64,000 nt of DNA from Nitrosopumilus sp. (GCA_963662625.1 OY759726.1:32001-96000); one strand, 5' to 3'. Counted from the stretch's first letter, positions 1-14,191 are shown. Numbers and translations: made by a program. The notes: a model not told the origin generated them from the sequence alone.

Positions 1-435
1 CAGGCCACGTCGGAGAACGCCGTGCTGGCGCTCAGGGACGCGATCGGGCGGTTCGGCACGCCGGCCACCGTGCTCTCCGACAACGGCCCGTGCTTCGTGG
101 GCCGGAACGGCCGCAGGAAGGCCCCTCCCCGGCCGTGGAAGCCCACCGCGTCCGGGGCGGAGCTGCTGGGCCTCGGGATCGAGCTCATAAACTCCAGGCC
201 GCACCACCCCCAGACCAACGGGAAGGCCGGGAGGTTCTTCCGGAGCGCGGGGGACGGGACATGGCACTACGAGAGCATGTCCGAGTACATGGCGTACTAC
301 AACGAGGACAGGCCGCGCTTCTCCCTGGACATCGACAACTACCAGACCCCGCTGAAGGCCTTCCATGACAAGGAGGCCGTGGCAGCGATCAGGGAGAGCA
401 ACCCGGGATGGATGGAGGCGGAGGCGGATGACTAG
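1..435 (+). mobile_element. IS481/IS3-superfamily integrase-core (rve) transposase, 3' part; reading frame is open from the window start
   Basis: Motifs 'VLSDNGPCF', 'SRPHHPQTNGK.GRF' and 'YYNEDRP' are typical of rve DDE cores; the usual catalytic Glu position (NGKxER) reads GKAGR, so it may be inactive. Confidence 0.85.
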
Positions 436-482: not shown

Positions 483-489
483 TTTTATT
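483..489 (+). promoter_or_regulatory. Candidate TATA box of the ParB operon
   Basis: TTTTATT 22-28 nt upstream of ATG 511, the usual spacing for archaeal leaderless transcripts. Confidence 0.45.
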
Positions 490-510
490 TCACTGCCCAT
501 TTTTTCCATT

Positions 511-1332
511 ATGGATTTATTGCCAGATCATACTACCCACATCCCGTTATCAGAAATAACCATGGGAAAGAGCCAGGCTCGGCAAAGGAATACCAAGGTG
601 GATGAAGATGACGACTTGGTTCATAGCATACGTAAGGATGGCCTACACAACCCAATCGTTGTAAAAAAAACTGACGAACACCAATTTGAATTGCTGAGCG
701 GCCAACGAAGGTTTAGAGTGCATGAAATGCTTCAGAAGCCCACAATCAAGGCATATGTGGTGGAAAAGGATATTGACGAATTTGAGGCAAAAAAAATCTC
801 GTTTGTGGAAAATGCCGCACGCAGGGATATGAAACATGCAGACTATGTTGACACCATACAGATTTTCATGAACAAGTATAACAACACCAGGACTGTTGCA
901 GAAGAGCTCGGCATGAGCGTCAACACTGTGAGAAAATACCTGACCATCGGGAGGCTGCCAGAGGCAGTTCAGGCTCAAGTCCAAAATAAAAAAATCACCG
1001 CGGACAACGCGATTAAAGCGCTGGACGCTCTTGGCGGTGACGAAACCAATGTAGATGAAGCGGTCTTACTTGAGACTGCGCAAGAGATGCAAAAACTTGC
1101 ACCGCAATCGAGGAAGAAGATGATCAAGATAAAACAAAATGAACCAAACTTAAGTGCGGCCGATGCTGCCAACAAAGCAAAGAAAAGCACCCAACTTAAC
1201 AGGTTTACTATTGAAGTCCCCTATGAGCAATTGACACGAATAGACAGATTCAAACAAATAAAGGAAATTAGCAAAACCGAAGAGGCAGCAATTGAGCTGA
1301 TTGATCGGGGTCTTGATTCTGCAGAAGCATAA
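511..1332 (+). CDS. ParB/Spo0J-family protein (ParB/Srx N-domain, HTH, C-terminal RHH-like region)
   Basis: 'LVHSIRKDGLHNPIVV', 'LLSGQRRF' (GxRR box), 'ENAARRDM', HTH 'TRTVAEELGMSVNTVRKYL'. Confidence 0.9.
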   Translation: MDLLPDHTTHIPLSEITMGKSQARQRNTKVDEDDDLVHSIRKDGLHNPIVVKKTDEHQFELLSGQRRFRVHEMLQKPTIKAYVVEKDIDEFEAKKISFVENAARRDMKHADYVDTIQIFMNKYNNTRTVAEELGMSVNTVRKYLTIGRLPEAVQAQVQNKKITADNAIKALDALGGDETNVDEAVLLETAQEMQKLAPQSRKKMIKIKQNEPNLSAADAANKAKKSTQLNRFTIEVPYEQLTRIDRFKQIKEISKTEEAAIELIDRGLDSAEA

Positions 1333-2090
1333 TGTCCATTCTACAAAGCCCGAAGCGCTTAGCTAAACTACTTGCCAGTATCAACGTATCATATTCTGAA
1401 AGACCAATATCTCCTATACAGGTTGCAGAAGAAATTGGCGAGCTATTAAAAGAGTTAAACGGTGACAAAAACGAACTCAAAAAACGGCTACCGCTATCTC
1501 AGGGCATCATTGATGGGTTTCTGCGTTTGTTAAACCTGCCGGGGAAAATCCAGGACATTATAGTGTGGGGGGAATCCAATAAGAATACGGGCGAGATTTC
1601 TTTTAGTGCCGCAAGCTATATTTGCAAATTAGAAAACAGCGAGGATGTCTTGAAGCTTGTGGGGGCAATGCATGATCTTGACAGGCCCATCACAAAAGAA
1701 GAGATCAAGGACATAATCAGCCTTAAAAAACACAATTCAGGAAAGCCAATCGAAAACTGCATCAATGAAGTGCTTGGCGTGACGAGGCCCACAGTGATCC
1801 AGCATTTTCTTTTTATCAGCGGCATCGACCCTTCAATTGTGAATGAACTAAAGGCAGAATCGCAAAAAAATAACATGAAATTGGATGATTGTGGAATTAA
1901 TGTTCTTTCCAAACTATTTCCCTCGGGTTCATTAAAAGGGGTCAAAATACACGATGACTATTTACAGCTGCATCTGTCCGAAGACGGAAGAAATTTCATG
2001 CGAAGGTATGGCGATTCCAACAACATATCTCGCAAGGATATAATCAACCACATGTTTGAGAAGGGAGCCACTGGAAATGAACAACAATGA
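1332..2090 (+). CDS. ParB-like HTH/KorB-type DNA-binding protein lacking the N-terminal nucleotide-binding domain
   Basis: 'ISPIQVAEEI...ELKKRLPLSQGIIDGFLRLLNLPGKIQDII.WG...EISFSAA' follows the ParB central-domain pattern; TAATG stop/start overlap with the upstream gene. Confidence 0.65.
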   Translation: MSILQSPKRLAKLLASINVSYSERPISPIQVAEEIGELLKELNGDKNELKKRLPLSQGIIDGFLRLLNLPGKIQDIIVWGESNKNTGEISFSAASYICKLENSEDVLKLVGAMHDLDRPITKEEIKDIISLKKHNSGKPIENCINEVLGVTRPTVIQHFLFISGIDPSIVNELKAESQKNNMKLDDCGINVLSKLFPSGSLKGVKIHDDYLQLHLSEDGRNFMRRYGDSNNISRKDIINHMFEKGATGNEQQ

Positions 2091-3126
2091 ACTTTTTTCT
2101 AAAGTCAAAATTACGGAACGCGGTGCAGTTTGTTTAGGAAAATCCCTTGTATGTGACGGGTTTGAACCCGACTACCATGCTGCGGCGTTTACTCATATCC
2201 ACTCTGATCATGTTTCTGACAGTTTCGAAACATGTATGCACCAATACAATGTATACGCCTCAAAAATCACCGGAGACCTGCTGGAGGCCATCACTGAGGA
2301 TACCTATTCTGGAAGAACCCAGTTTAAGCGAATCGATTATGGCGCCCCACAATTGATAAAATTTAATGATCATGGAGATTACTTGGAGCTTTTGGAATCC
2401 AAGCACATGCTGGGCTCAAGCCAGGTATTGCTGCATACCCATGATCAGCTGAAATTGCTTTATTCAGGTGATATCTCTCCAGATGATCATCCTCCCAAAT
2501 GCGATGTCTTAGTTATTGATTCTACTCACGGAGATCCCAGATTTGACAAAATCATCGATAGCGATAGCCTTGAGAGGCGGTTGTTGGACATAGTAGTAGA
2601 ATCAATCGATACCAAAAAACCTGTCTGCATACATGCTCACAGGGGGCAGTTACAAGACATAATGCATATTCTGTCTAACGATTCAAGGATTCTGCCGGAA
2701 GTTAAATTTCTAACCTCAAGCACCGATTTACAGATTGCCGAGGTTTATTGCCGTAACGGCGTTGAAATCAAGAGTTTGATAGATTTGCAATCTTATGAGG
2801 GGGAAACCATAACCAGCAACGGCTACCCATGGGTCGAATTTAGGCCAACTCTTCAGTTTACAAGACCAGAAGATCGAGGCCAAATGACTGGCATTCATGT
2901 ATGCGGTGGTTTTGGCAATGCTACCATAAGGGCCGATGGCAACAAGCACTGGATTGCCAGTGATAGCCACGCGGAGTTTTCTGATTTGTTGCGCTACGTC
3001 AGAGAGGCGGATCCCCAGGTAGTAGTCGTAGACAACCGCAGATCATCTTTAGGAAAAACGCTTGCCGAAAAAATCAACGAGATCGGCTACGAATCTAAGG
3101 CCATGCCCGTATTAGAAAATGACTAA
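2077..3126 (+). CDS. Metallo-beta-lactamase/beta-CASP family nuclease
   Basis: HxHxDH 'THIHSDH', 'KHMLGS', 'YSGDI', 'VIDSTHG', 'SDSHAEF'; ATG 2077 overlaps the upstream gene. Confidence 0.85.
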   Translation: MNNNELFSKVKITERGAVCLGKSLVCDGFEPDYHAAAFTHIHSDHVSDSFETCMHQYNVYASKITGDLLEAITEDTYSGRTQFKRIDYGAPQLIKFNDHGDYLELLESKHMLGSSQVLLHTHDQLKLLYSGDISPDDHPPKCDVLVIDSTHGDPRFDKIIDSDSLERRLLDIVVESIDTKKPVCIHAHRGQLQDIMHILSNDSRILPEVKFLTSSTDLQIAEVYCRNGVEIKSLIDLQSYEGETITSNGYPWVEFRPTLQFTRPEDRGQMTGIHVCGGFGNATIRADGNKHWIASDSHAEFSDLLRYVREADPQVVVVDNRRSSLGKTLAEKINEIGYESKAMPVLEND

Positions 3127-4480
3127 ATCAAGACAGCATTTTAAACAGTATTTGAAGGCGTTTATCCAACGGGCCCTGTCTGCATGCAAGGAGGAATACC
3201 TGAAAAATAAGCAGAAATATGAGGGCAGAGTCCCCATGGCAGATTTTTCGGGCCGAACACTGTCAATAACGCACAGGGATACGATAGATTACAAAAAACT
3301 GAGTCTCGCGTTAAAGACCTCTATTAAAAAATACCCGGAAGCCAATTCGCTTTTTAAGATCATAAGAAATATCCTAAAGTCCAAGATCAATCAAACCGAA
3401 TCAAAAAACACCAATAAGACGGATGTCGATTACAATGGATTGGATTCCCAGTTATTTTATTGCATATTCCATTATTTAAAAAATTACGGGTTTGAATTCG
3501 ATGAGTCCAACTTTAATGAAACCTTTTCAGCTTTTGATCAATATCTGCACCTGGGTTTTGACAATTACTGCTATCTTACTCCCTTGTATAATTTTGATGG
3601 TGATTTTGAGCACTGCCAGATATCATCCTGCTTGTGGATACAAAAAATCCCAATTAGTTTTTACAGTAAAATCATAAACTTGAATCTGGGCATCCGTGAG
3701 ATTCCGTCTTATCAAAGACAGCTCAAATACGCACTATTTTGTAGTGTTGGGACTAAGACTTCCCCCAGTCCCCCATCTACCGCCCTTAAAAATTTTGAAA
3801 ATACTCTCAATGCACTGAAACTATTTGAACGGGGAGATCCGAGCTTCGGAGATGTGTTTGGAATTCTCTCCAAAGATTGGCCTGGTTACAGTTTGAGCAT
3901 TATAGAGCGCGGTCACGAAAGATCACCTTACTCCTCCAGAAAATACCGCCTAGACGAGAAAAAAGCAAAAGATTTTGCGCATTTTCACGAGAAGTTATTC
4001 GGCAAAATATCCAAGCTAGACAGGAAATCTGGCTTCTTAGAATCTTCAATTCGTCGTTTTGGAATGGCATTTCATCATAGGGAGCCGGTAGATAAGATCG
4101 TGGACCATGTTATCTGCTTGGAGTCTTTGCTGGTTCCAAACGTGGGGGATGCCACCCTCAAACTATCCCATAGAATGTCTTCCCTGTTAGGTGACAACGA
4201 CGCCGAACGTGTATGGATATGGAAGTTTGCAAAGGAGGCCTATAAATTCAGAAGTGGGTACCTACACAAGTCCAAAGAGCGGCCAATTAAAATCGACTCT
4301 CATAATTTAGAATTAGACGAGGTATCTGCTAAATTGGAATGTCTTTCTCAGCTTGCCATCATGCGAGTAATCCAACTATTGCACAAATATGATTCCCAAG
4401 ATCAAATTGTTGATGAACTTGATCAATCGATGTATGACCGCGGTAAATTGAAAAAACTTCAAAGGGTTTGGAAACACTAA
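3119..4480 (+). CDS. ApeA-like HEPN domain protein (putative RNase)
   Basis: C-terminal 'ICLESLL...LKLSHRMSSLLG...AYKFRSGYLH' with an intact R-x4-H HEPN motif. Confidence 0.8.
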   Translation: MTKSRQHFKQYLKAFIQRALSACKEEYLKNKQKYEGRVPMADFSGRTLSITHRDTIDYKKLSLALKTSIKKYPEANSLFKIIRNILKSKINQTESKNTNKTDVDYNGLDSQLFYCIFHYLKNYGFEFDESNFNETFSAFDQYLHLGFDNYCYLTPLYNFDGDFEHCQISSCLWIQKIPISFYSKIINLNLGIREIPSYQRQLKYALFCSVGTKTSPSPPSTALKNFENTLNALKLFERGDPSFGDVFGILSKDWPGYSLSIIERGHERSPYSSRKYRLDEKKAKDFAHFHEKLFGKISKLDRKSGFLESSIRRFGMAFHHREPVDKIVDHVICLESLLVPNVGDATLKLSHRMSSLLGDNDAERVWIWKFAKEAYKFRSGYLHKSKERPIKIDSHNLELDEVSAKLECLSQLAIMRVIQLLHKYDSQDQIVDELDQSMYDRGKLKKLQRVWKH

Positions 4481-4578
4481 AGTGGCGATGATTGTGAATT
4501 TCACCGTAGATGCGGCGATGCAGAAACCTGCAGGTGCCCAGCTGATCGTGTACGCCCCGAGTTACTCTGAGACACACT

Positions 4579-5754
4579 TCAGGAGCCGTTAATTTTTGAG
4601 ATCTGTTTTACGGCTTCCGCTATCTTCCGGGCTGAAAACTCCACCCCGTGATCCGGCTGGTCGCTAAAGCGCCCTATCCCAACACGGATTGACGAGAAAG
4701 CCCGGTCCTCGCCGAACCCCAATGCCATGATCACGTGTGATGGCTCCACGCTTTGGGTGGTGCACGCTGATCCTGTAGATATCGCAACGTGGTCCGAGAC
4801 CGAGTTGATTATGGCCTTGCCTTCCACGCCTGGAAAGTAGAGGTTGAGGTTGCCTGGCAGCCGATCGTCCTTGGGGCCATTGAGTGCCACATCCGCCTGT
4901 CCACGTATGAGATCAAACATCGTGGAAGACAGGCTCCTGAGTATCGTGGCCTCCGAGTGCATCTCCTTGTGTGCGATTTCTGCCGCTTTGCCAAACCCGA
5001 CTATCGCCGGCACGTTTAGGGTTCCAGAGCGCATTCCGTGCTCCTGTCCGCCCCCGTAGACCAGGGGCGATACCCGGACTCGTGGGTGCATGCCCCGAAC
5101 ATATAGCGCGCCTATTCCCTTGGGACCGTACATCTTGTGCGCCGAAAACGACATCAGGTCGATGTTCATGTCTTCGGTGCTGACCGGTATGTGGCCTACT
5201 GCCTGCGCCGCGTCGGTGTGGAACAGTACCCCCTTCTCGTGGGCCATCTTTCCTATGCTTGCGACGTCCTGTATCGTGCCGATCTCGTTGTTTGCGGCCA
5301 TTATGGATATCAGAACCGTCCTGTCCGTTACGGCATCCTCGAGTTCGCCCATGTCGACGAAGCCATGCTCGTCTACCGGCACGTACGTCACTTTTTTCCC
5401 CATGGCCTCCATATGCCTTGCCACGCTTAGCACGGATTCGTGCTCGGTAACGCATGTGATCATGTGATCGCCGGCATCCTCGTACGCATTCATGACGCCG
5501 GATATTGCGAGGTTGTTCGACTCTGTGGCCCCGCTTGTAAAGACAATCTCGTTTTCTTTTGCGCCGATTGTGGCTGCAATGTCTTTTCTTGAAGACGAGA
5601 CTGCCTCGGCGGCCTTGCTGCCGTACACATGATCCGTGCTTGATGCGTTTCCAAAGGAATCCGCAAAGTAGGGCATCATGGCATCAAGCACTCTGGCATC
5701 GAGCGGCGTCGTGGCGTTGTTGTCAAGGTACACGATGTCTTCTAGTTGAGGCAA
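4579..5754 (-). CDS. dndA: Cysteine desulfurase DndA (IscS-like)
   Basis: 'YLDNNATTP', 'TSGATE', PLP Lys 'SAHKMYGPKG', catalytic 'STGSACT'; last gene of the dnd operon. Confidence 0.9.
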   Translation of the reverse strand: MPQLEDIVYLDNNATTPLDARVLDAMMPYFADSFGNASSTDHVYGSKAAEAVSSSRKDIAATIGAKENEIVFTSGATESNNLAISGVMNAYEDAGDHMITCVTEHESVLSVARHMEAMGKKVTYVPVDEHGFVDMGELEDAVTDRTVLISIMAANNEIGTIQDVASIGKMAHEKGVLFHTDAAQAVGHIPVSTEDMNIDLMSFSAHKMYGPKGIGALYVRGMHPRVRVSPLVYGGGQEHGMRSGTLNVPAIVGFGKAAEIAHKEMHSEATILRSLSSTMFDLIRGQADVALNGPKDDRLPGNLNLYFPGVEGKAIINSVSDHVAISTGSACTTQSVEPSHVIMALGFGEDRAFSSIRVGIGRFSDQPDHGVEFSARKIAEAVKQISKINGS

Positions 5755-6125
5755 TTCTCCCGCTCCTGTAGTATGACGCGCTCAAAGTCGGACATGTCGT
5801 GTATGCGGGCAAACAGCGCTATGGTTCCGCGGTTAAAATGCGCACGCACCATCCTGTTCATCCACATGTTGGGGTTGAACCCGTCCCTCCTCAGTCGCTG
5901 GATCATCAGCGCCATGAACATGTCCTCGTAGTCTCCGAACAGCACGGATGGGTGTATCTCCGATCCCTTCTCGTCGAACTCGTCCGGGTTTGGGGGGGAG
6001 GGGTCGTTTAGCGACATGCATATTGCGAACCTCCCCATTATGTTGGGGGCCAGGCCTGTCCTCGACTTTAGCTGCGCAAGCAGGTTCTGCGAGCGCGAAC
6101 TCATCCTAAGCCTAGCGAACCGCAA
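5742..6125 (-). CDS. dndE: DNA sulfur modification protein DndE
   Basis: 'RLRMSSRSQNLLAQLKSRTGLAPNIMGRFAICMSL' and 'RAHFNRG'; likely TTG start at 6125 overlapping the dndD stop. Confidence 0.88.
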   Translation of the reverse strand: MRFARLRMSSRSQNLLAQLKSRTGLAPNIMGRFAICMSLNDPSPPNPDEFDEKGSEIHPSVLFGDYEDMFMALMIQRLRRDGFNPNMWMNRMVRAHFNRGTIALFARIHDMSDFERVILQERENCLN

Positions 6126-8157
6126 CAACCCGGCGTCCCCCCTCGTTCCAGAAGTAGCTATCGTGCTTCTTCGTAGATCCCTTGCTATCAACATATTCCA
6201 AGGCATATGACCGCATCAGGTGGGGCTTCAGTTTTTTGTAGTCCCGGTATTCAATCTCCTTGTCGGTGGAGAAGATTAAGATCTGGTGCGATGCTTTGGG
6301 AAGGAACTTGGCCATGATGTTTGTTCTGTGCTTCCCGTCAAGCCGTGCCAGCGGGGTATCTATGACAAACGGCAGTGGCCTGCCGGAGGTCTTTGCCAGT
6401 GACCACAGGACAGACATTGCAAACATCTGCTTCTCGCCCTCGGACAGGATATCTTTTTGTAGCGTGGAGCCGTTTTCCCTAAACAAAGTTATCTCAAACG
6501 TGTCAGGGTTGACCACGACCTTCTCGACCAGGTTTTTCTTATGCATGAGCAGTTTGAGATAGCCCAGCACATAGCCCTCCAAGAGCCGAATTTTTTTGTG
6601 TTTTAGTTTCTCGGCAAACTCCTCCAAGGCGCTCTGGACCTTCTGGGTTAGTTCTACACGGATTTCAGCCTTTTCGTTATCGTATATCTCAGATGTCAGG
6701 GCTTGTATCTTGTTGTCAAGATGCCGCTTCAGGGACGTCTCGCTCGCTATTTTTTCCTTCATGTGTGAGAACCGTACTGACAGTTCGCCCTTTTGCGACT
6801 GGGCATTTCCAATATCTGAAACCAGCGAGCTGATCTCGTCATCACGGGGGGCGCTTTCGATGGACACCTCCAGCCTGTTCATCTCCTCTGCCACCTTGAC
6901 GAGGGTTTTCGTGTGTTTTCTGAGTGCCGAGATGGCATCGGTGTTGGCTTCGTCAATTATGGACATCATCCTGGATGCCTGGGAGGCCGAAAAATCAAAC
7001 ACGGGCTTGGGGACCGCTTTGGCGCGGGTCTTTTCCTTCCGGAGCATGGAGGACATGGCGGATACGGCCGCATCAATGTGACGCCTCTCGAGCCCGGACT
7101 CTTTCCAGAATTGCGCGGTCTTGATCTTGGAAGCGATATGGCTTAGCTTGGAGTCTACCAGATTGTCGCCGGCCAGTTGCTGCTGTATTGATTCATCCTC
7201 CTTGATCTGTTCAGATAACCTCACGAGGTCGTCTGGGATCATTGCAAAGGGCAGGGTTCCAGAGCAGAGCTCTGCCACGTCTTGTCGGACATGCTCATAC
7301 ACTGCCTTTTTTGCCGCAAGCTTCCCCCTGGCAGCATCACGTCCACTGGCAAACGTGCCCCCGATGCCAGAAATCTTGCCTTCCAGGACCTCGATCTCCT
7401 GATCTAGCCGATCCATGTCGTTTTGCAGGGCGGCGGACTTTTCTTCCAGGTTGGCAATCGTGCGCATTGCATCGGCTTTCTCCTTTTCGTATCTGTCGCA
7501 GTCCTGCCTCAGGTGGTCGCTTTTCTTGGTGAGGTTCCTCGCAAGGTTGATCCTCAGGTCGGTGCGGAGCTGCTCTACAAGATCTATGCCCAGAAGGGAT
7601 TTGAAGGATTCCTTGATCGCTATGTCCTCGGTTCCTTCCTTGGCAATCTCCACTATCTTTTCGCCGTCGAAAAAGAACAGGTTTGCTATCCCCTTTGGAA
7701 TCAAGCCCTCTACGAACGACTGCCAGTGGGACTTTTCTATGTCTTCCAATGGGGCGAACTCGGCATCATCCGACGTGCGTTTTTTGACGTCAAGCGTCTC
7801 CTCTATGGAGCCCTCTTCTTTTTTCCAGAAGCGCTCCACCCGGTATTCGGCGACCTTACCGTCGTGAAAGAACTTGAATTGCACGGTGATCGACGCGTGG
7901 TCGGCAGGGGTTAGGCTCTTGGCGTACCGGTGAATCTTGCGTGCGAGGAACTTTCTGTATTCTTTTTTGGACACCCGTCTGCCCAGGGCAGATATGCCGT
8001 AAAGGCATATGGTCATGGATTCAAAGAGGGTGGTCTTCCCGGCCCCGTTTGTTCCGCCAATCAGTATAATGGGCTTTTGGGCGGTACATGTAAAGTCAAA
8101 CTCGTTTTTCCCCCTATATACGCCGTAATCCTGCAACACGATGCGCGTGACTATCAA
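6112..8157 (-). CDS. dndD: DNA sulfur modification protein DndD (SMC-like ATPase)
   Basis: Walker A 'GTNGAGKTT', 'FFFDGEKI', long coiled coil, 'LSEGEKQ', 'IDTPLARLD', 'FSTDKEI'. Confidence 0.93.
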   Translation of the reverse strand: MIVTRIVLQDYGVYRGKNEFDFTCTAQKPIILIGGTNGAGKTTLFESMTICLYGISALGRRVSKKEYRKFLARKIHRYAKSLTPADHASITVQFKFFHDGKVAEYRVERFWKKEEGSIEETLDVKKRTSDDAEFAPLEDIEKSHWQSFVEGLIPKGIANLFFFDGEKIVEIAKEGTEDIAIKESFKSLLGIDLVEQLRTDLRINLARNLTKKSDHLRQDCDRYEKEKADAMRTIANLEEKSAALQNDMDRLDQEIEVLEGKISGIGGTFASGRDAARGKLAAKKAVYEHVRQDVAELCSGTLPFAMIPDDLVRLSEQIKEDESIQQQLAGDNLVDSKLSHIASKIKTAQFWKESGLERRHIDAAVSAMSSMLRKEKTRAKAVPKPVFDFSASQASRMMSIIDEANTDAISALRKHTKTLVKVAEEMNRLEVSIESAPRDDEISSLVSDIGNAQSQKGELSVRFSHMKEKIASETSLKRHLDNKIQALTSEIYDNEKAEIRVELTQKVQSALEEFAEKLKHKKIRLLEGYVLGYLKLLMHKKNLVEKVVVNPDTFEITLFRENGSTLQKDILSEGEKQMFAMSVLWSLAKTSGRPLPFVIDTPLARLDGKHRTNIMAKFLPKASHQILIFSTDKEIEYRDYKKLKPHLMRSYALEYVDSKGSTKKHDSYFWNEGGRRVVAVR

Positions 8158-9659
8158 CGGTTGTTCACCAGGCTGCGTTTTGAGTGATTTCGTGATTCCA
8201 AATCACGGATGATCTCTGGCATGTCATCCCTCCATTCCTCTGCGAGTATCTTGTTGATCTTGGGGTATATCTTGGAATGCTGCACCATGCCTTGTGATTC
8301 GTGTTCTGCATTGAGCAGTTTAGACACCAAAAGGGCAGGAACGTCGTTTTGTTGGCAAATTTCCTCCAGCAGGTCCTGCTCCACCACGCCGAATACTCCA
8401 AGATCCTCCTGGGGCGGGACGAGTTTTTCGCCCATGATCTTTTCGTAGATCTGGTATGCCGTATTCTTCCAGTCGCCCCTCTCCATCCTCCATATCCTTT
8501 GGATCTCATGGATCTCATCCTCCAAGATTAGCATCATGTACGGGTCTGGCCCGTCCTGCCTGATTTTTTTCTGGGCTTTTAGTAGTTTCTTTAGAAATTC
8601 CTTGCAAAAGTCCATCGTGTATGGGCCAGGAACCAGTCTGTTGTGCGGATCGTCGTAGTCAATGCCCTCTGGCTCTTTTACGGATTCGAGCATCTTCTTG
8701 TCAAACCCCTTCCTGCGTCCGTCGTCGATGAGCTTCATCTGCCCGGTCCTGCGCTTGAACGAGCGCACCTCCTTCCTCTTGGCAGGCTCTTGCGTGGCCT
8801 TGAGATCCTCGCGCAGTTCAAGCAGGGGCTCCATCCAGCCCTCACCGTTTTCGATCGTGTTGCGCAGGGACGAGTCATCGTTGACCACGGTGCACGTCCA
8901 GCATCCGAACCTGCTGTTTCCACAGGACGGAGTGCTGGCATCCACCACCAGTGGGCATTCCGAGGCGTTTGCGTTCTGGTACATTGCCAGCAGATCCCTG
9001 TTGTTGGAGCCCCACGGGTTTTTTTTCTGCAGCAGGTAATTCCACACATCCTTGGACGTGAAATCACGCAGGGGCGTATACACATAGGTCTGGGCAAACT
9101 TCGAGTGCCGCGAGAGCAGGCTTCCCTCAATCTCATAGAGGTTCATTAGCTGTTGTCGGGAACCGCTCTCGTCCTTCCTGGTTCCCAGAACCACAATTGC
9201 CTCGCCATATTCCGATACCCTGTCCTGTATGAACCTGTCCGCATTACGTATCTTGAGCCTCTCCGTGCACCACCTGAACAGGTTGCTTGGGGCCGGGAAT
9301 CCCTTTCCAAGGAGGCACACCCAGAAAGTATCCTCCATTAGAGGACGGACCAGGTTTGTTGATATCGGAAGGCGTGATTTTTTGGATGCTTTTTCCATCA
9401 TGTCGAGTGTGCTGGTGATTTGCTCCACAACCTTGGGAGACTCTACCAGCGTGTCAGACGATATTATGAAGATCCGCTTGTGTAGTTTTTTTGCGGGTAG
9501 TTCGGACAACGCCTCCCAGATAAGCTGGACCATGCATGTGGAGTCCTTGCCTCCGCTGAATCCGAGAATCCACGGTCTGTTGTCTGAAAGATATACCTGC
9601 CGGATCTCCTCATAGATGTCCCTCACCTTGCGGGTTTTAAATATAGATTCTGTGGGCAT
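8154..9659 (-). CDS. dndC: DNA phosphorothioation sulfurtransferase DndC (PAPS-reductase family)
   Basis: PP-loop 'GFSGGKDS', 'RWCTERLKI', Fe-S cysteines 'ECPLV...SCGNSRFGCWTCTVV'. Confidence 0.95.
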   Translation of the reverse strand: MPTESIFKTRKVRDIYEEIRQVYLSDNRPWILGFSGGKDSTCMVQLIWEALSELPAKKLHKRIFIISSDTLVESPKVVEQITSTLDMMEKASKKSRLPISTNLVRPLMEDTFWVCLLGKGFPAPSNLFRWCTERLKIRNADRFIQDRVSEYGEAIVVLGTRKDESGSRQQLMNLYEIEGSLLSRHSKFAQTYVYTPLRDFTSKDVWNYLLQKKNPWGSNNRDLLAMYQNANASECPLVVDASTPSCGNSRFGCWTCTVVNDDSSLRNTIENGEGWMEPLLELREDLKATQEPAKRKEVRSFKRRTGQMKLIDDGRRKGFDKKMLESVKEPEGIDYDDPHNRLVPGPYTMDFCKEFLKKLLKAQKKIRQDGPDPYMMLILEDEIHEIQRIWRMERGDWKNTAYQIYEKIMGEKLVPPQEDLGVFGVVEQDLLEEICQQNDVPALLVSKLLNAEHESQGMVQHSKIYPKINKILAEEWRDDMPEIIRDLESRNHSKRSLVNNR

Positions 9660-10745
9660 TCAGGCGTCCATCCCTATGGTTTCAGGCAATCCAAGGCCGA
9701 CTAATATTTCATTGGCTGCCCTCTTGATCCCCAGCCGGTTCTTGATCAGTTTGCCGTCCATGACTACCTTGTCCTGCCAGATCGGGCTGTTTCGCATCCA
9801 GTCGATCTTCTGTAGCCCTCTGATCCGATCTTTCCAGTCAGATCGCTGGACCAGCACATGGCCCACCAGCCCTAGCGCGTTGAGGATGTTTGTGTGTGCA
9901 TGGACGTAGTCCTTCCTCAGGTCATAAGGAGTGAGCTTTTTCTGCACCAGAAGGTTCCACTCGGGTATATTTGATGCCACAGCGTCCCAGTACTCCACTG
10001 CTAGTTTTTGTTTTTCAGCAGAGATCGATTTTGTTGTGGGTTTGAGGCTTAAAAGATACCTTGTCGCATCTGCCACCCCGTTCAAAGTCACAAACTTGGT
10101 TGAGCGGTTGGAGATGTTTGTGCGCTCCATCTCCGTACGCCCGCAAAACACCTCAACGTCATTGACCAGATTGACGATGAATCTTGCAAACGTGTCCCGG
10201 TGGTCATACAGCAGTCCCAGTGACTTGGTTGGCTTGACCGCATGTTTGTTGAGGTCAGCAAACATCTGCTGGCTTCGCTCCAGCCCCCTGTCCTCAAACA
10301 CGACTACAGCCATGCGTTCCATGCCAATGCGTTCGTCGTCCTCGTATGCAGACCGGATTGCGGCGCACCGGTGCTGTCCATCATTGACTAGGATTCTTGC
10401 ACTGCTTGGTATCCTGATCTTTCCCACCTTGCTCTCCGAATTGTTACGTGGAGTAGGCTCAAAGTCTATCTTTTGGTCTACAGAGACCGTAATCGCTGAA
10501 AAGACATAGTTGTCAAGGTTGTCCAGTATGTAAGATGCTATCCTGGGCACGCGTGATTCCCTAATCTTGCGCTGGGCCCTCAAGTGTGCAGGAATTCCGG
10601 AATCCTTGTCAAACTTGAAGTGGTTGCTTATGGTGGCAAAATCAGACATCATGATATAAAACACGCGTCCAGCCTGAATGCCCTTTGTGGCGTCGAACGT
10701 CAGGGAGCTGGCAGCCTCGGCCTCGACATACTGTTGCCTGCTCAT
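9660..10745 (-). CDS. dndB: DNA sulfur modification protein DndB (DGQHR domain)
   Basis: 'GIQAGR', 'RAQR', 'NDGQHR', 'SQQMFADLN', 'LLYDHRD'. Confidence 0.93.
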   Translation of the reverse strand: MSRQQYVEAEAASSLTFDATKGIQAGRVFYIMMSDFATISNHFKFDKDSGIPAHLRAQRKIRESRVPRIASYILDNLDNYVFSAITVSVDQKIDFEPTPRNNSESKVGKIRIPSSARILVNDGQHRCAAIRSAYEDDERIGMERMAVVVFEDRGLERSQQMFADLNKHAVKPTKSLGLLYDHRDTFARFIVNLVNDVEVFCGRTEMERTNISNRSTKFVTLNGVADATRYLLSLKPTTKSISAEKQKLAVEYWDAVASNIPEWNLLVQKKLTPYDLRKDYVHAHTNILNALGLVGHVLVQRSDWKDRIRGLQKIDWMRNSPIWQDKVVMDGKLIKNRLGIKRAANEILVGLGLPETIGMDA

Positions 10746-11278
10746 TCATGACGCACCTGGAAGCATGTTGTAATTTTAATTTGCACGCGCGGTACTCGTG
10801 TTTTCCACTTTTGAGAGGGTTTGTGGCTAGGTGTTGACCTAGACGTTAATTCGTTTTAGCTAACATATGCAATTGATGTAAAGCGCAAAAAGAAAATTTC
10901 AAATTAAAATAAGGGCGGGATTGAAATCTCCGTTACAAATACTGTTAACATATTACTAATATAGTAAACACATAAAATAATTGTTCATTTTGGCCGGAAC
11001 TATCTCCGGGTTCATCGTGCCCCATATTGACCCAGTGGGTTCTACGGCGTCACCGCACAGGCGGCTACCTAGATAGTTCGTCACCACCCCATAGTCAGCG
11101 CATTATCTATTCGCTCATTTTGGTCCAGGGGGGATTCTTTTTGCGCATGGTGGCAAGCGTGGATCCGCCATATTGCATGTGTCAGTAGCACGTTGCTAGT
11201 CGATTTCATAATGCGTTGAGTACAGAATACGGGCCCCGCGCCGCGCAGGAAATGATGCGGCACCATAGGCACCGGCGG

Positions 11279-12778
11279 TCACGTGAACGCGTCGAGGCCT
11301 GTCTTGCCCGCGGCCTGGTTTTTCTTCAGCTCCCGCTCCATCCTGTCGCCCATGGACCTTGCCGCCGTCATCTTCCGCCGCCCTATCCAGTAGTACGTCT
11401 CGTCGATGGTCCCCCTGGCGATGAGGACGGTCAGCCTGCCGGCGTCCTTCCGCCCCGTCCTCCCGCGCCGCTGGACGAACCGGATCGAGCTGGGCACGTT
11501 GTCGTAGAACACGACCTGGTTCACCTCGGAGATGTCCAGCCCCTCCTCGCCGACTCGGGTGGCCACCAGCGCCCTGATCTGGCCGTCGCGGAACTTCCGC
11601 ACGACCTCGACCTGCTTCTTCTGCTTCAGCCCCGACTCGCCGGCCTTGCCGATCAGTATGCCCGCCGGGATCCCCATCTCGGCCAGGCTGTCGCGTATGA
11701 CGTCGACGGAGTCGCGGTAGCTGGAGAAGACCAGCACCTTGCCTGGGACGGACTCTATTATCTCCCTGAGCTTCGGGATCTTCGAGTGCTCGATCCCCTT
11801 GGCCTTGGCCTCGTTTGCCAGCCGGACTGCCCTGGTGAAGTTGGGGTCCTCCTCGAAGAGCTCCCTGACCCCGGCCCCCTTCTTTGCGCGGGCCCGCTCG
11901 CAGAACTTCAGGAACGGCGTGATCCCGTGCGCCTCCAGGATGTTCAGCGCGTAGTGGATCCTGATCGCCGTGAACAGCGGCTTCGCGGAGCGCCTGTCCC
12001 GGCCCAGGACGTGCGGCCGCAGCCGCAGCAGCGCCGAGAGCGACCGGTTGTCGCCCACGCCCACCCCGTTCCTGCGCAGGGTGGCGTACCTCTCGTCGAG
12101 CGCCAGCTTTACCAGCTTCTGGATCGCCCTCATCTCCGGCGGCAGGTCCACCTTGACCCACCGCGTGTCGGTCCGCTGGACGTAGGGCCTGACGTCGGGG
12201 CTCTCCTCGGTCCTCTCGGCCACGCTGGCTATCCGCAGCCTGGTCAGGATCTCGGTGGCCTTCTCCCTCTCGCTGGGCAGGGTGGCGGTCATGCCCAGGA
12301 TCCTGGCCCCCGTGCCCTCGAGGCGCCGGGCGATCCCGGAGTACGCATAGTCCCCCACCGCCCTGTGCACCTCGTCGAACACCACCAGCGAGAACTGCGA
12401 CGGGGAGACGAGCCCCCTGTCCAGGTCGTTCTTGGCGATCTCCGGCGTGGCGCACACCACGCTGCCGCCCCACGCGCGGGCCCGCCTCTTGATCGGGTCC
12501 TCGCCGGTGACAAGCGAGACGTCCTCCAGCGTGAGGCTGTCCCCGAGGAACCCGTGGTGCTGTGCCGCCAGCACGCGGGTCGGCGCCAGGAACAGCACGC
12601 CGCCCTCCCCCCGGGAGAGGAACTCGGACATCACGTGCAGCGCCACGGCGGTCTTGCCGAGCCCCGTGGGCAGCACCACGATGCAGTTCTCCGCGGCCGC
12701 CTGCGCGGCCAGGTTCTCCTGGTAGTCCCGCCTCTCGACGGCGTCCCTCCTGATGTACCTCTTTTCCACGTATTCCAC
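11279..12778 (-). CDS. Hef/MPH1(FANCM)-like SF2 DEAD/DEAH helicase without a nuclease domain
   Basis: 'LPTGLGKT', 'DEVH', 'MTAT', 'EEGLDI', 'QRRGRTGR'. Confidence 0.92.
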   Translation of the reverse strand: MEYVEKRYIRRDAVERRDYQENLAAQAAAENCIVVLPTGLGKTAVALHVMSEFLSRGEGGVLFLAPTRVLAAQHHGFLGDSLTLEDVSLVTGEDPIKRRARAWGGSVVCATPEIAKNDLDRGLVSPSQFSLVVFDEVHRAVGDYAYSGIARRLEGTGARILGMTATLPSEREKATEILTRLRIASVAERTEESPDVRPYVQRTDTRWVKVDLPPEMRAIQKLVKLALDERYATLRRNGVGVGDNRSLSALLRLRPHVLGRDRRSAKPLFTAIRIHYALNILEAHGITPFLKFCERARAKKGAGVRELFEEDPNFTRAVRLANEAKAKGIEHSKIPKLREIIESVPGKVLVFSSYRDSVDVIRDSLAEMGIPAGILIGKAGESGLKQKKQVEVVRKFRDGQIRALVATRVGEEGLDISEVNQVVFYDNVPSSIRFVQRRGRTGRKDAGRLTVLIARGTIDETYYWIGRRKMTAARSMGDRMERELKKNQAAGKTGLDAFT

Positions 12779-12913
12779 GGCAGGCGCCCGATCCGGGGCC
12801 GCGCCATGGGGATTTTATGCTTTCGGGTGGCCGGGCGCGACCCGTCGCCCGTAGTCTGTTGCACAACTCGGCACGATCCCCGGGCCGTGGCCAGGCCGTG
12901 CCGCTTGGAGTCC

Positions 12914-14068
12914 CTACGCCCCCGCCTCCCCCGCCCACCGGTTGTACTGGGCCACCCTGAGCCTTACCTCCTGCACGATGTTCTCCCACCTGCGCGAGTG
13001 CACGTGGTCCCCGAACATCCTCTTGAACGCCGATATGATTATCTCGATCAGCCACCTCCTGCCGTACCCCTTCCTGGCCTTCCAGTACCGGACGTTCTCC
13101 TCCCTCTCCCTCGTGCCCATCCTGTCGACGCGCGCCTCCGGGCCGCCCCCCAGCTGGTCCCGCACCGCCTCGCCCCACGCGCCGCCGGCGCCCTTGCCCC
13201 TGGCGGTGGACGCCACCTTGACCGGGATGATAGGCCCCACGCCCATGTCGCGGCACCTCCGCATGTTGTCCCGCGACGCGTACGCCCCGTCCGCGATCAG
13301 GCGCGCCCCGTGGGAGCCGGGCGGCTGGCCGCACTGCAGCGCGAGCGGCGCCACGCCGCTCGCGAGGAGGTTGGGCGGGGGCGAGCCCACGCGCGGCAGG
13401 GGATCCCCCGCCGCGGCTGCCTTCCCGCGGATCAGCGCCATGCGCCTGTCCTGCTTCCCCGCCGGCTTCCCGTCCGGCTTCCCGTCCGGCTTCCCGTCCG
13501 GCTTCCCGCCACGCGGCTCCACCACGGTTCCCAGGAGCTCCTTCAGCATGGGGGAGTCGCCCGTCCTGTCGTCGGTCACCACCGCCGCGAGTATCTTCTT
13601 CGTGTCGGCGTCGGCCAGCAGGTGCAGCTTGACGAACCCGCGCTTCACCTTCCACTTCTTCCGTATCCACTCGCCCCGGTTGCACTGCTTCAGGCCCGTG
13701 GCGTCGGCCAGCAGGGTCATGGGCTGGCCGCCGCCGGAGACGCGGACGACTCCCCCGCCGATGTCCACGTCGAGGCGCGCCATCCTCCTGGCCAGCACCG
13801 AGTAGTGCGGCGCGCCGTGCCCCCCCAGCATCCCCGCGAGGAGCCCGGACAGCTGCCTGTACTGTACCCCGAGCGAGGTCCTCACCGCGGCGGCGGCCAT
13901 GACCAGCGCCCCGGCGTACCTGAACGGGGCGCCCTCCTTGCCGGCGTTGGCCTCCCTCAGGTCGTCCTCCCAGCCGGGGTCATACGACACAGCCAGGCCC
14001 CTCCCGCGCCTGACGTATTTCTCGTTGTCGGTCGCAGCCAACGGGGACGGTGCGCGGCCGTGATCCAA
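12914..14068 (-). CDS. IS5-family DDE transposase
   Basis: 'ADATGLK..NRGEW', 'KLHL', 'ADGAYAS', 'YGRRWLIEIIISAFKRMFG'. Confidence 0.92.
   Translation of the reverse strand: MDHGRAPSPLAATDNEKYVRRGRGLAVSYDPGWEDDLREANAGKEGAPFRYAGALVMAAAAVRTSLGVQYRQLSGLLAGMLGGHGAPHYSVLARRMARLDVDIGGGVVRVSGGGQPMTLLADATGLKQCNRGEWIRKKWKVKRGFVKLHLLADADTKKILAAVVTDDRTGDSPMLKELLGTVVEPRGGKPDGKPDGKPDGKPAGKQDRRMALIRGKAAAAGDPLPRVGSPPPNLLASGVAPLALQCGQPPGSHGARLIADGAYASRDNMRRCRDMGVGPIIPVKVASTARGKGAGGAWGEAVRDQLGGGPEARVDRMGTREREENVRYWKARKGYGRRWLIEIIISAFKRMFGDHVHSRRWENIVQEVRLRVAQYNRWAGEAGA
13462..13509. repeat. 12-bp tandem repeat CCGGCTTCCCGT x4 (last copy has one mismatch) inside the transposase
   Basis: Encodes GKPD repeats. 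Confidence 0.9.
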
Positions 14069-14191
14069 GGCCTTTTCGGTTTGACATGGTTGGGCCGGGG
14101 GTTCAACTGTTTAGACCCGGCAATTTCTGGCAGTTGTGCAACAGACTAGTCGCCCGAATATCCATATATGGCACGGGTTGGCATGAAGGGC

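Follow-up and report, generated by a model that had tools for sequence, protein, structure and literature searches.

The DNA analysed here, hereafter the window, is a stretch of 64,000 nt from Nitrosopumilus sp. (GCA_963662625.1 OY759726.1:32001-96000), all coordinates being counted from the window's first letter. At positions 511-4480, four plus-strand open reading frames (ORFs) encode a ParB protein (ParB1), a shorter ParB paralogue (ParB2), a beta-CASP nuclease and a HEPN-domain protein (G4), and this four-gene module adjoins a dndBCDEA operon, i.e., a writer of DNA phosphorothioate (PT) modification. It is argued below that the module is probably an effector arm coupled to such writers. 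The features concerned are as follows:

511-1332, plus strand: ParB1, a full ParB of 273 aa, with a nucleoside triphosphate (NTP)-binding N domain, a helix-turn-helix (HTH) and a C-terminal domain
1332-2090, plus strand: ParB2 (ParB'), 252 aa, a ParB1 paralogue without the N-terminal NTP-binding domain
2077-3126, plus strand: compact metallo-beta-lactamase (MBL)/beta-CASP nuclease, 349 aa from the ATG at 2077 (from a TTG, the ORF begins at 2056), recognized by motifs and profile matches
3119-4480, plus strand: G4, 453 aa, with an N-terminal alpha/beta region of ~300 aa and a C-terminal HEPN domain (~298-425)
4481-4578, no strand: convergent intergenic spacer of 98 bp, module to dndA
4579-5754, minus strand: dndA/IscS-type cysteine desulfurase (Aminotran_5 7.4e-85; TIGR03235 3.8e-126)
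5742-6206, minus strand: dndE (PF08870 1.3e-21)
6112-8157, minus strand: dndD (TIGR03185 9e-150)
8154-9659, minus strand: dndC (TIGR03183 2e-153)
9660-10745, minus strand: dndB (DGQHR, ParB superfamily; PF14072 3.8e-111; TIGR03233 1.6e-110)
483-490, plus strand: TTTTATTT, candidate archaeal TATA box by position only, ~24 nt before the ParB1 ATG

An earlier description of this DNA, made without database searches (the sequence-only reading), had noted four genes with overlapping stops and starts, an AT-rich composition and about 100 bp between the end of the module and dndA, all of which hold. Direct reading of the sequence confirmed the overlap at all three junctions: ParB1 and ParB2 meet at a TAATG (1330-1334), the nuclease ATG at 2077 lies ahead of the ParB2 TGA stop (2088-2090), and the G4 ATG at 3119 lies ahead of the nuclease TAA stop (3124-3126). 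The module has a G+C content of 42.2% as compared to 63.4% for the genome, in which 17 of 1855 4-kb intervals fall below 45%, while the dnd genes in the window, at 53%, lie 11 points above the module. The module had furthermore been described as 'facing' the dnd operon; the two do adjoin on opposite strands, yet the arrangement is tail-to-tail (convergent). The position of TTTTATTT would suit an archaeal TATA box and an mRNA without a leader.

Conserved gene order and linkage to phosphorothioation writers

Protein searches returned eight G4 homologues and 76 nuclease homologues, and a scan in which each species was represented by one genome yielded 34 loci (loci and genomes are cited by L and G numbers), eight of which constitute the module clade (L001-L007, L009). 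The remaining 26 (L008, L010-L034; Asgard, Methanomethylicia, Chloroflexota), which had been retrieved with the iterated nuclease hidden Markov model, proved to be generic beta-CASP loci without ParB1, ParB2, G4 or dnd matches, and were left out of all module counts. Six of the eight module-clade loci are adjoined by dndBCDEA, the contigs of the other two (3.9 and 2.9 kb) being too short to judge.

The order Nitrosopumilales was sampled through 400 genomes, in which the nuclease was sought by profile because diverged modules (G365, G390) escape a single-protein search at E 1e-30. Seven copies scoring at least 392 bits were found in six genomes, along with one copy at 211 bits (L069), against a background of at most 73 bits. 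All seven top copies are dnd-adjacent and all six genomes possess dndC, a gene present in 23 of the 400 genomes overall, while the 211-bit copy is embedded in an ssp cluster, as described below. A background-level nuclease match was all that G265 offered. Matches to the SspD model in G000 and G005 were dismissed as generic PAPS-reductases, the same model matching six of 14 control genomes.

A metagenome scan added 70 loci. In 60 of these, ParB2 immediately precedes the nuclease, the other ten beginning with the nuclease at the contig start, and G4 immediately follows the nuclease in 45 of the 46 loci with room for it; the homologues thus stay together, as the sequence-only reading would have it. 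Twenty of the loci have an informative upstream flank (L120, with no upstream room, was left out), and dnd genes are present on it in 17, the exceptions being L105, L107 and L131. To obtain a pooled count, copies from all sources were collapsed at a nuclease identity of at least 95% and restricted to stretches of at least 12 kb. Among the resulting 25 non-redundant copies, 23 lie beside dndBCDEA, one lies inside sspABCD and one has neither, so that the association with PT genes on which the sequence-only reading had speculated is seen in 24 of the 25.

Of the 23 dndC-positive genomes, 15-17 show no module, the range being set by the way of counting a ParB1 remnant (L059) and a cut ParB1 (L061). 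A second DndD-like gene was encountered at six other dnd loci of the 400-genome sample (L045, L050, L052, L055, L057 and L060), and the sole one examined, that of L045, proved to be PbeC (4.6e-103), which shows that Nitrosopumilales harbour Pbe-type systems as well. No second DndD-like gene was found within the fetched stretch of any module locus. The Nitrosopumilus chromosome that harbours L004 (G002) possesses three separate dndC copies above the cut-off.

Variation in module architecture

The invariant core of the module consists of ParB1, ParB2 and the nuclease. G4 is missing in L009, L048, L062 and L069, while many loci possess, upstream of ParB1, an SNF2 helicase (587-591 aa) together with a protein of 263-269 aa that falls in no known family; G4 and the SNF2 helicase are add-ons to the core. 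In some loci there is a third protein with ParB_N, or else a further MBL/RMMBL protein of larger size. A second MBL of ~470 aa was observed directly after G4 in four loci (L005:5032-6456, L073:12445-13857, L076:2207-3610 and L082:13239-14642), and that of L005, the sole copy scanned, carries an RMMBL domain according to Pfam.

The order of module and dnd genes is likewise variable, being collinear in L001, L003, L004, L005, L070 and others, convergent in the window, L006 and L048, and divergent in L009 and L062. At L077, L082, L086, L097, L096 and L079 the distance from dndA to the SNF2 gene ranges from -4 to +45 bp, while that from dndA to ParB1 is 36-60 bp in L073, L134 and L005 and ~100-140 bp in L001; such spacings suggest that writer and module form a single operon in the collinear loci. 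One genome, G362, contains two tandem, diverged dndBCDEA-plus-module units (L041:271-13864 and L042:626-11107) ~16 kb apart, one of which was seen to include the SNF2 gene and a 269-aa gene while the other is without them.

A different setting is that of L069 (3317-16148), where an Ssp-type PT writer has the ParB1-ParB2-nuclease trio placed between its sspA-sspB-sspC genes and sspD (PADLOC: sspA 1e-135, sspB 2e-89, sspC 3e-296, sspD 8e-108). This locus also has a gene for a 341-aa protein of unknown kind and one for an MzaB-like HATPase protein alongside the trio.

Across 18 loci, the identity of DndC to the window copy does not correlate with that of the nuclease (Spearman rho -0.12, p 0.63). 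For example, L048 exhibits 78% identity in DndC and 28% in the nuclease, while the corresponding values for L004 are 55% and 62%. Writers and modules have thus been exchanged and yet have remained linked, and that they came together again and again after exchange speaks for a functional tie. The linkage is considered to be more than co-inheritance because orientation varies, because two unrelated writer types (Dnd and Ssp) are involved, because the identities are uncorrelated and because the two halves in the window differ in G+C.

The ParB pair

The sequence-only reading had identified the first two products as a ParB and a ParB without its N domain, and profile searches agree. ParB1 matches ParB_N (1.4e-14; 54.4 versus a cut-off of 26.3), HTH_ParB (1e-5) and TIGR00180 (1.8e-22; 80 bits versus a curated cut-off of 58.45), and by these matches is a bona fide member of the ParB/Spo0J family. 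Arg 24 and the GQRR motif (G64-Q65-R66-R67), which correspond to the motifs through which the ParB switch binds its nucleotide, are invariant in 34 of 34 orthologues, and in the alignment the C-terminal domain looks ribbon-helix-helix-like. ParB2 matches HTH_ParB alone (residues 26-110, 1.7e-6), with no N-terminal ParB domain, and a profile-profile comparison by hhalign places its residues 13-195 on residues 94-267 of ParB1 (probability 97.2%, E 2.8e-11). Judged from this alignment, ParB2 is a truncated ParB1 paralogue that has lost the first ~93 residues, i.e., the nucleotide-binding domain, and has kept the HTH and C-terminal domain.

ParB1 resembles the canonical CTP-dependent clamps ParB, Noc and KorB in that it passes TIGR00180 and has the GxxRR and arginine motifs and the HTH. 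Unlike these, it has as its partners a paralogue devoid of the N domain and a nuclease, and the module is without ParA: as had been noted from the sequence, no ParA-like ORF is present in or beside the module among the window ORFs, and none turned up in the annotated related loci. The ParB fold is able to bind CTP, ATP or GTP, according to part of PMC12704722.

The beta-CASP nuclease

As a single sequence, the nuclease matches TIGR04122 (1e-9), the Cas14 MBL-CASP model (1e-6) and, below the cut-off, Lactamase_B_2 (0.023; 14.8 versus 27). Its family profile retrieves, among PDB sequences, aCPSF1 (4.2e-22), Cas14 (8.7e-19) and SNM1A (2.5e-10), as well as CPSF73, IntS11, Apollo and Artemis. The HxHxDH site, which had been judged intact from the sequence, is present as THIHSDH and is conserved: H40, H42, D44, H45, H110, D132 and H298 are invariant in 12 of 12 module orthologues. 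By motifs and profile matches, the third gene product is a beta-CASP enzyme, with the MBL motifs and the beta-CASP insertion that are seen in SNM1A/Apollo/Artemis, aCPSF1/CPSF73, Cas14 and TIGR04122 proteins, and with a size near that of the SNM1/Apollo cores. Unlike the curated beta-CASP families, it scores far under every cut-off; it is, for example, not a member of the TIGR04122 ligase-associated exonuclease equivalog (37.7 versus 325 bits). In Cas14 of type VII CRISPR, a beta-CASP effector of immunity is already known.

Beyond motif B (H298), the 12 orthologues have no conserved histidine, while V316 and D319 are invariant. This pattern resembles the DNA-acting branch in Callebaut's classification.

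The HEPN protein G4

G4 has no family match in Pfam or PADLOC (to E 0.1) or in NCBIfam. The sequence-only reading had called it an ApeA-like HEPN RNase with an intact RSGYLH site. The site is indeed intact, its Rx4H (FRSGYLH, R378-S-G-Y-L-H383) being invariant in 15 close and 32 distant homologues, and R313, D329, E335, R352 and Y375 are also invariant in the 15. A confident AlphaFold2 model built on these 15 homologues (predicted local distance difference test score 87, predicted template modelling score 0.83) was compared with known structures by VIA-align, in which seven of the eight top rows for residues 298-425 were HEPN proteins, with Z-scores of 8.8-7.5, values that helical bundles often reach and that are not decisive by themselves; among these rows are 4nqf_B (Z 8.8, root-mean-square deviation 3.1, 116 residues), 2hsb (Z 8.3) and Csm6 (Z 7.5). 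A Foldseek search of the model against the PDB gave nothing useful, the best hits (E 0.012, TM 0.13) being halogenases. The HEPN domain was accepted because of the HEPN rows in VIA-align together with the invariant Rx4H and its companion residues.

The ApeA part of the description finds no such support. ApeA models (PF18739/PADLOC) did not match G4 at E 0.1, nor any of 32 diverse members of its family, and a search of the PDB with the family profile gave Ec4ApeA as best hit, with a borderline E of 0.018 and an aligned length of just 55 residues. In both proteins a HEPN domain with Rx4H forms the C-terminal part, behind an N-terminal region of ~300 aa; however, the N-terminal domain of ApeA is mostly beta, as stated in part of PMC3710099, while residues 1-146 of the G4 model are helical. 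The G4 profile retrieves 14,509 representatives at E<=1e-3, 4,208 at E<=1e-10 and 314 at E<=1e-30, and no HEPN or ApeA model, whether of Pfam or of PADLOC, matches any of the 32 sampled members; G4 thus belongs to a large, uncharted HEPN-bearing family. Its members are mostly 440-460 aa long (representatives P0090-P0238). In L003, a Nitrosopumilaceae chromosome, G4 is in two pieces (11050-11775 and 13141-13644) ~1.3 kb apart, and is thus interrupted or broken.

Comparison with known systems

The four-gene combination had not been recognized as a named system, and this assessment stands: PADLOC gave no system match, none of its models matching any of the four proteins, and full-text searches of the literature found no description of the module, although supplementary tables might list such neighbourhoods. 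The section of PMC10853773 on nucleases in Dnd neighbourhoods, which covers HKD, HNH, restriction endonuclease, URI, HEPN and PIN nucleases, contains no ParB or beta-CASP module, nor do the relevant portions of PMC12704722, PMC7848895, PMC3710099 and PMC12988326. In its composition, as predicted from sequence, the module is unlike DndFGH, PbeABCD, SspE, SspFGH and DndI.

PbeABCD, a four-gene cassette found beside archaeal dndCDEA, comprises an HKD nuclease-SF2 helicase (PbeA), a small protein (PbeB), a CxC ABC ATPase (PbeC) and a DndE cognate (PbeD), as outlined in parts of PMC6459918 and PMC10853773. Cassette similarity is uncorrelated with writer similarity in this system too, with a rho of 0.107 for DndCD-PbeAC given by Xiong et al. 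(in a portion of PMC6459918). None of the four module proteins, however, matches a Pbe model, and the differing composition rules out identity with PbeABCD; moreover, Pbe-type systems and the module occur at separate dnd loci in the 400-genome sample.

A closer parallel is offered by SspE and DndI, in which a ParB-superfamily NTPase and a nuclease are likewise encoded beside a PT writer. Each combines a DUF262 ParB-superfamily NTPase with an HNH nuclease, PT stimulating the NTPase and the NTPase gating the nuclease (as described in parts of PMC13251355 and PMC11662687). In these proteins the DUF262 (DGQQR)-HNH fusion forms one polypeptide, while the module has a separate ParB1 (with GQRR and HTH), ParB2 and beta-CASP nuclease, and none of its four proteins has a Pfam match to GmrSD_N (DUF262) or HNH. 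By this analogy SspE/DndI may be the closest model for how the module works. DndFGH and SspFGH are multi-subunit PT restriction arms as well, and some module variants carry an SNF2 helicase/translocase, yet they are without homology to the module.

The presence of dndFGH or pbeABCD elsewhere in the genome would weaken the view of the module as partner of the PT writer, and neither was found. The host genome, which is 99.5% complete, has one DndE and one DndD above the cut-off, with no second DndD/DndE pair of the Pbe type, and gave no match to DndFGH (TIGR03236, TIGR03237, TIGR03238) in searches made without a positive control, in which 14 control genomes were silent as well.

Genomic island and host

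The low-G+C island that holds the module is bordered on its left by a gene of host-like G+C, and a second low-G+C patch lies upstream of the window. The features on this side are as follows (L140 coordinates where so marked):

1-435, plus strand: 3' part of an insertion sequence (IS)-type rve integrase/transposase gene with host-like G+C (rve_3 4.3e-6), at the left edge of the low-G+C island
L140:11746-12435, plus strand: the complete rve ORF in the genome, the end of which is window 1-435 (rve 3.2e-11)
L140:10566-11696, plus strand: DDE_Tnp_1 transposase, just upstream of the rve ORF
L140:8385-9242, plus strand: HNH_2 protein, in the second low-G+C patch
L140:5647-7599, minus strand: OLD-like ATPase-TOPRIM protein of 650 aa, in the second low-G+C patch

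Because OLD-like and HNH_2 genes are found upstream in this second patch, followed by DDE_Tnp_1 and rve genes, the setting of the module is a composite defence island. The host, a Nitrosopumilaceae archaeon of high G+C, falls in the same family as a module-bearing Nitrosopumilaceae metagenome-assembled genome (MAG) and is not a haloarchaeon. Among 41 relatives, the window's own genome included, two possess the module, and two genomes of the same genus are without it; this sparse distribution, the G+C contrast and the IS genes indicate recent horizontal acquisition of the module. No relative was found on IMG/VR viral contigs, and a search of 72,556 plasmids at E 1e-10 did not retrieve the nuclease.

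On the far side of the dnd operon, two long ORFs (11196-13685, minus strand, and 11216-14149, plus strand) overlap on opposite strands in DNA of 70% G+C. The 829-aa ORF of this pair has no Pfam or NCBIfam match, and at least one of the two is probably not a gene.

Proposed function and alternative explanations

The reading that we favour, if with some reserve, is that the four genes constitute an undescribed PT-coupled effector module that works with DndBCDEA by a logic analogous to that of SspE and DndI. The proposal of the sequence-only reading, that the operon may be the missing effector arm of the dnd genes, is thus supported as far as genomics reaches, i.e., by conserved gene order and linkage to PT writers. 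ParB1 would bind a nucleoside triphosphate via its GQRR motif and close on DNA as a clamp in the manner of canonical ParB, while ParB2 would pair with ParB1 or provide DNA-site binding, and would couple the clamp to the nuclease; a ParB1-ParB2 heteromer is plausible in view of the shared DNA-binding and C-terminal domains. PT marks of the host would alter the nucleotide cycle or residence time of the ParB assembly, as for the DUF262 domain of SspE/DndI, such that the nuclease would be licensed on unmarked, foreign DNA only. The HEPN protein would serve as a second, facultative effector, probably an RNase, as backup, and in many loci the SNF2 helicase and the 266-269-aa protein would add translocation. 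Module and dnd genes would have been acquired horizontally, in the host genome, into a defence island that lies next to IS elements. A more specific version, which we advance as a tentative and on balance doubtful proposal, holds that a ParB sliding clamp acts as the immune scanner for self and non-self: PT would halt or release the clamp, while unmarked DNA would license a beta-CASP DNase, the HEPN RNase coming second.

Several observations weigh against PT coupling. L105 and L107, which represent one variant (nuclease identity of at least 95%), have no dnd genes on the visible flank, of which just 3.1 and 1.7 kb can be seen, and their upstream genes encode a GmrSD_N protein and a Schlafen/AlbA_2 protein. 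L131 (6754-19333), on a 19-kb contig, has neither dnd nor ssp genes, and its nuclease is split into two ORFs; the trio is followed there by two pairs of ParB_N-HTH and PAPS-reductase genes, an arrangement that we presume to be IbrAB-like. The module-clade loci too short to judge are L002 (Rubritalea) and L007 (an alphaproteobacterium), both on contigs of MAGs with a bacterial assignment, and dndC was not found in the incomplete assemblies behind them. Most loci come from one archaeal order and are not independent. The DndFGH negative is weak, since none of the 14 control genomes gave a signal, and the best relatives of the nuclease with solved structures are, by sequence comparison, RNA-processing beta-CASP enzymes, so that its substrate may be DNA or RNA.

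The main rival explanation, which we nevertheless regard as unlikely, is that a ParB clamp, a nuclease and a HEPN protein together form an autonomous defence system, or one directed against mobile genetic elements, that does not read PT and has simply been mobilized along with dnd and ssp genes because defence genes cluster. It is in keeping with the OLD-type ATPase-TOPRIM gene, HNH gene and IS elements of the window's island, with the GmrSD_N and Schlafen neighbours of L105/L107, with L131, and with the absence of correlation between writer and module identities. Generic clustering in islands does not, however, predict that 24 of 25 copies lie by a PT writer, that dndA and SNF2 genes overlap or abut, or that the trio stands between sspC and sspD; nor does it predict the occurrence of dndC in six of six module genomes versus 23 of 400 (hypergeometric probability ~2e-8, overstated as the genomes are related).

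The operonic spacing with dndA at many loci and the position of the trio within the ssp writer cluster of L069 would equally suit an accessory of PT writing or upkeep, in which the ParB pair regulates or targets Dnd/Ssp as DndB does and the nuclease nicks or repairs as SspB does; DndB is itself a ParB-superfamily regulator (as noted in part of PMC10853773). The adjoining dnd clusters are already complete (B, C, D, E, A), however, and the module is missing from 15-17 of the 23 dndC-positive genomes and alternates with PbeC-type loci, while a HEPN effector and an SNF2 helicase typify restriction or abortive arms rather than writers, which makes this explanation less likely still. Canonical ParB motifs, low G+C and IS genes at the edge might also point to a cassette for partition, maintenance or addiction that belongs to an integrated mobile element and whose ParBs segregate or silence, its nuclease and HEPN protein being toxins. 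Plasmid-type partitioning was already thought improbable in the sequence-only reading; there is no ParA, no viral-contig relative and no plasmid match for the nuclease, and the flanks elsewhere consist of dnd or ssp genes and not of replication or integration genes, for which reasons we give it very little credence.

Significance

For many dnd and ssp writers a restriction partner is not known; for example, DndFGH was present in only 806 of the 3416 taxa with nuclease-bearing Dnd neighbourhoods considered by Krishnan et al. (in a section of PMC10853773). A ParB-ParB'-beta-CASP module that is conserved would close some of this gap, and would carry the nucleotide-switch fold of ParB into immunity, in a form of several subunits that can be dissected genetically through mutants of GQRR, HxHxDH and Rx4H. 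The family of its HEPN partner, with its 4,208 representatives, lies outside all Pfam and PADLOC models. Were the clamp proposal to hold, the module would represent the first ParB-clamp-based immune sensor, and also a fifth, mechanistically distinct PT effector arm, one that serves both Dnd and Ssp writers and is widespread in marine ammonia-oxidizing archaea. For the ammonia-oxidizing archaea, key marine nitrifiers with few characterized defences, the module would provide a defined candidate for the use that is made of PT.

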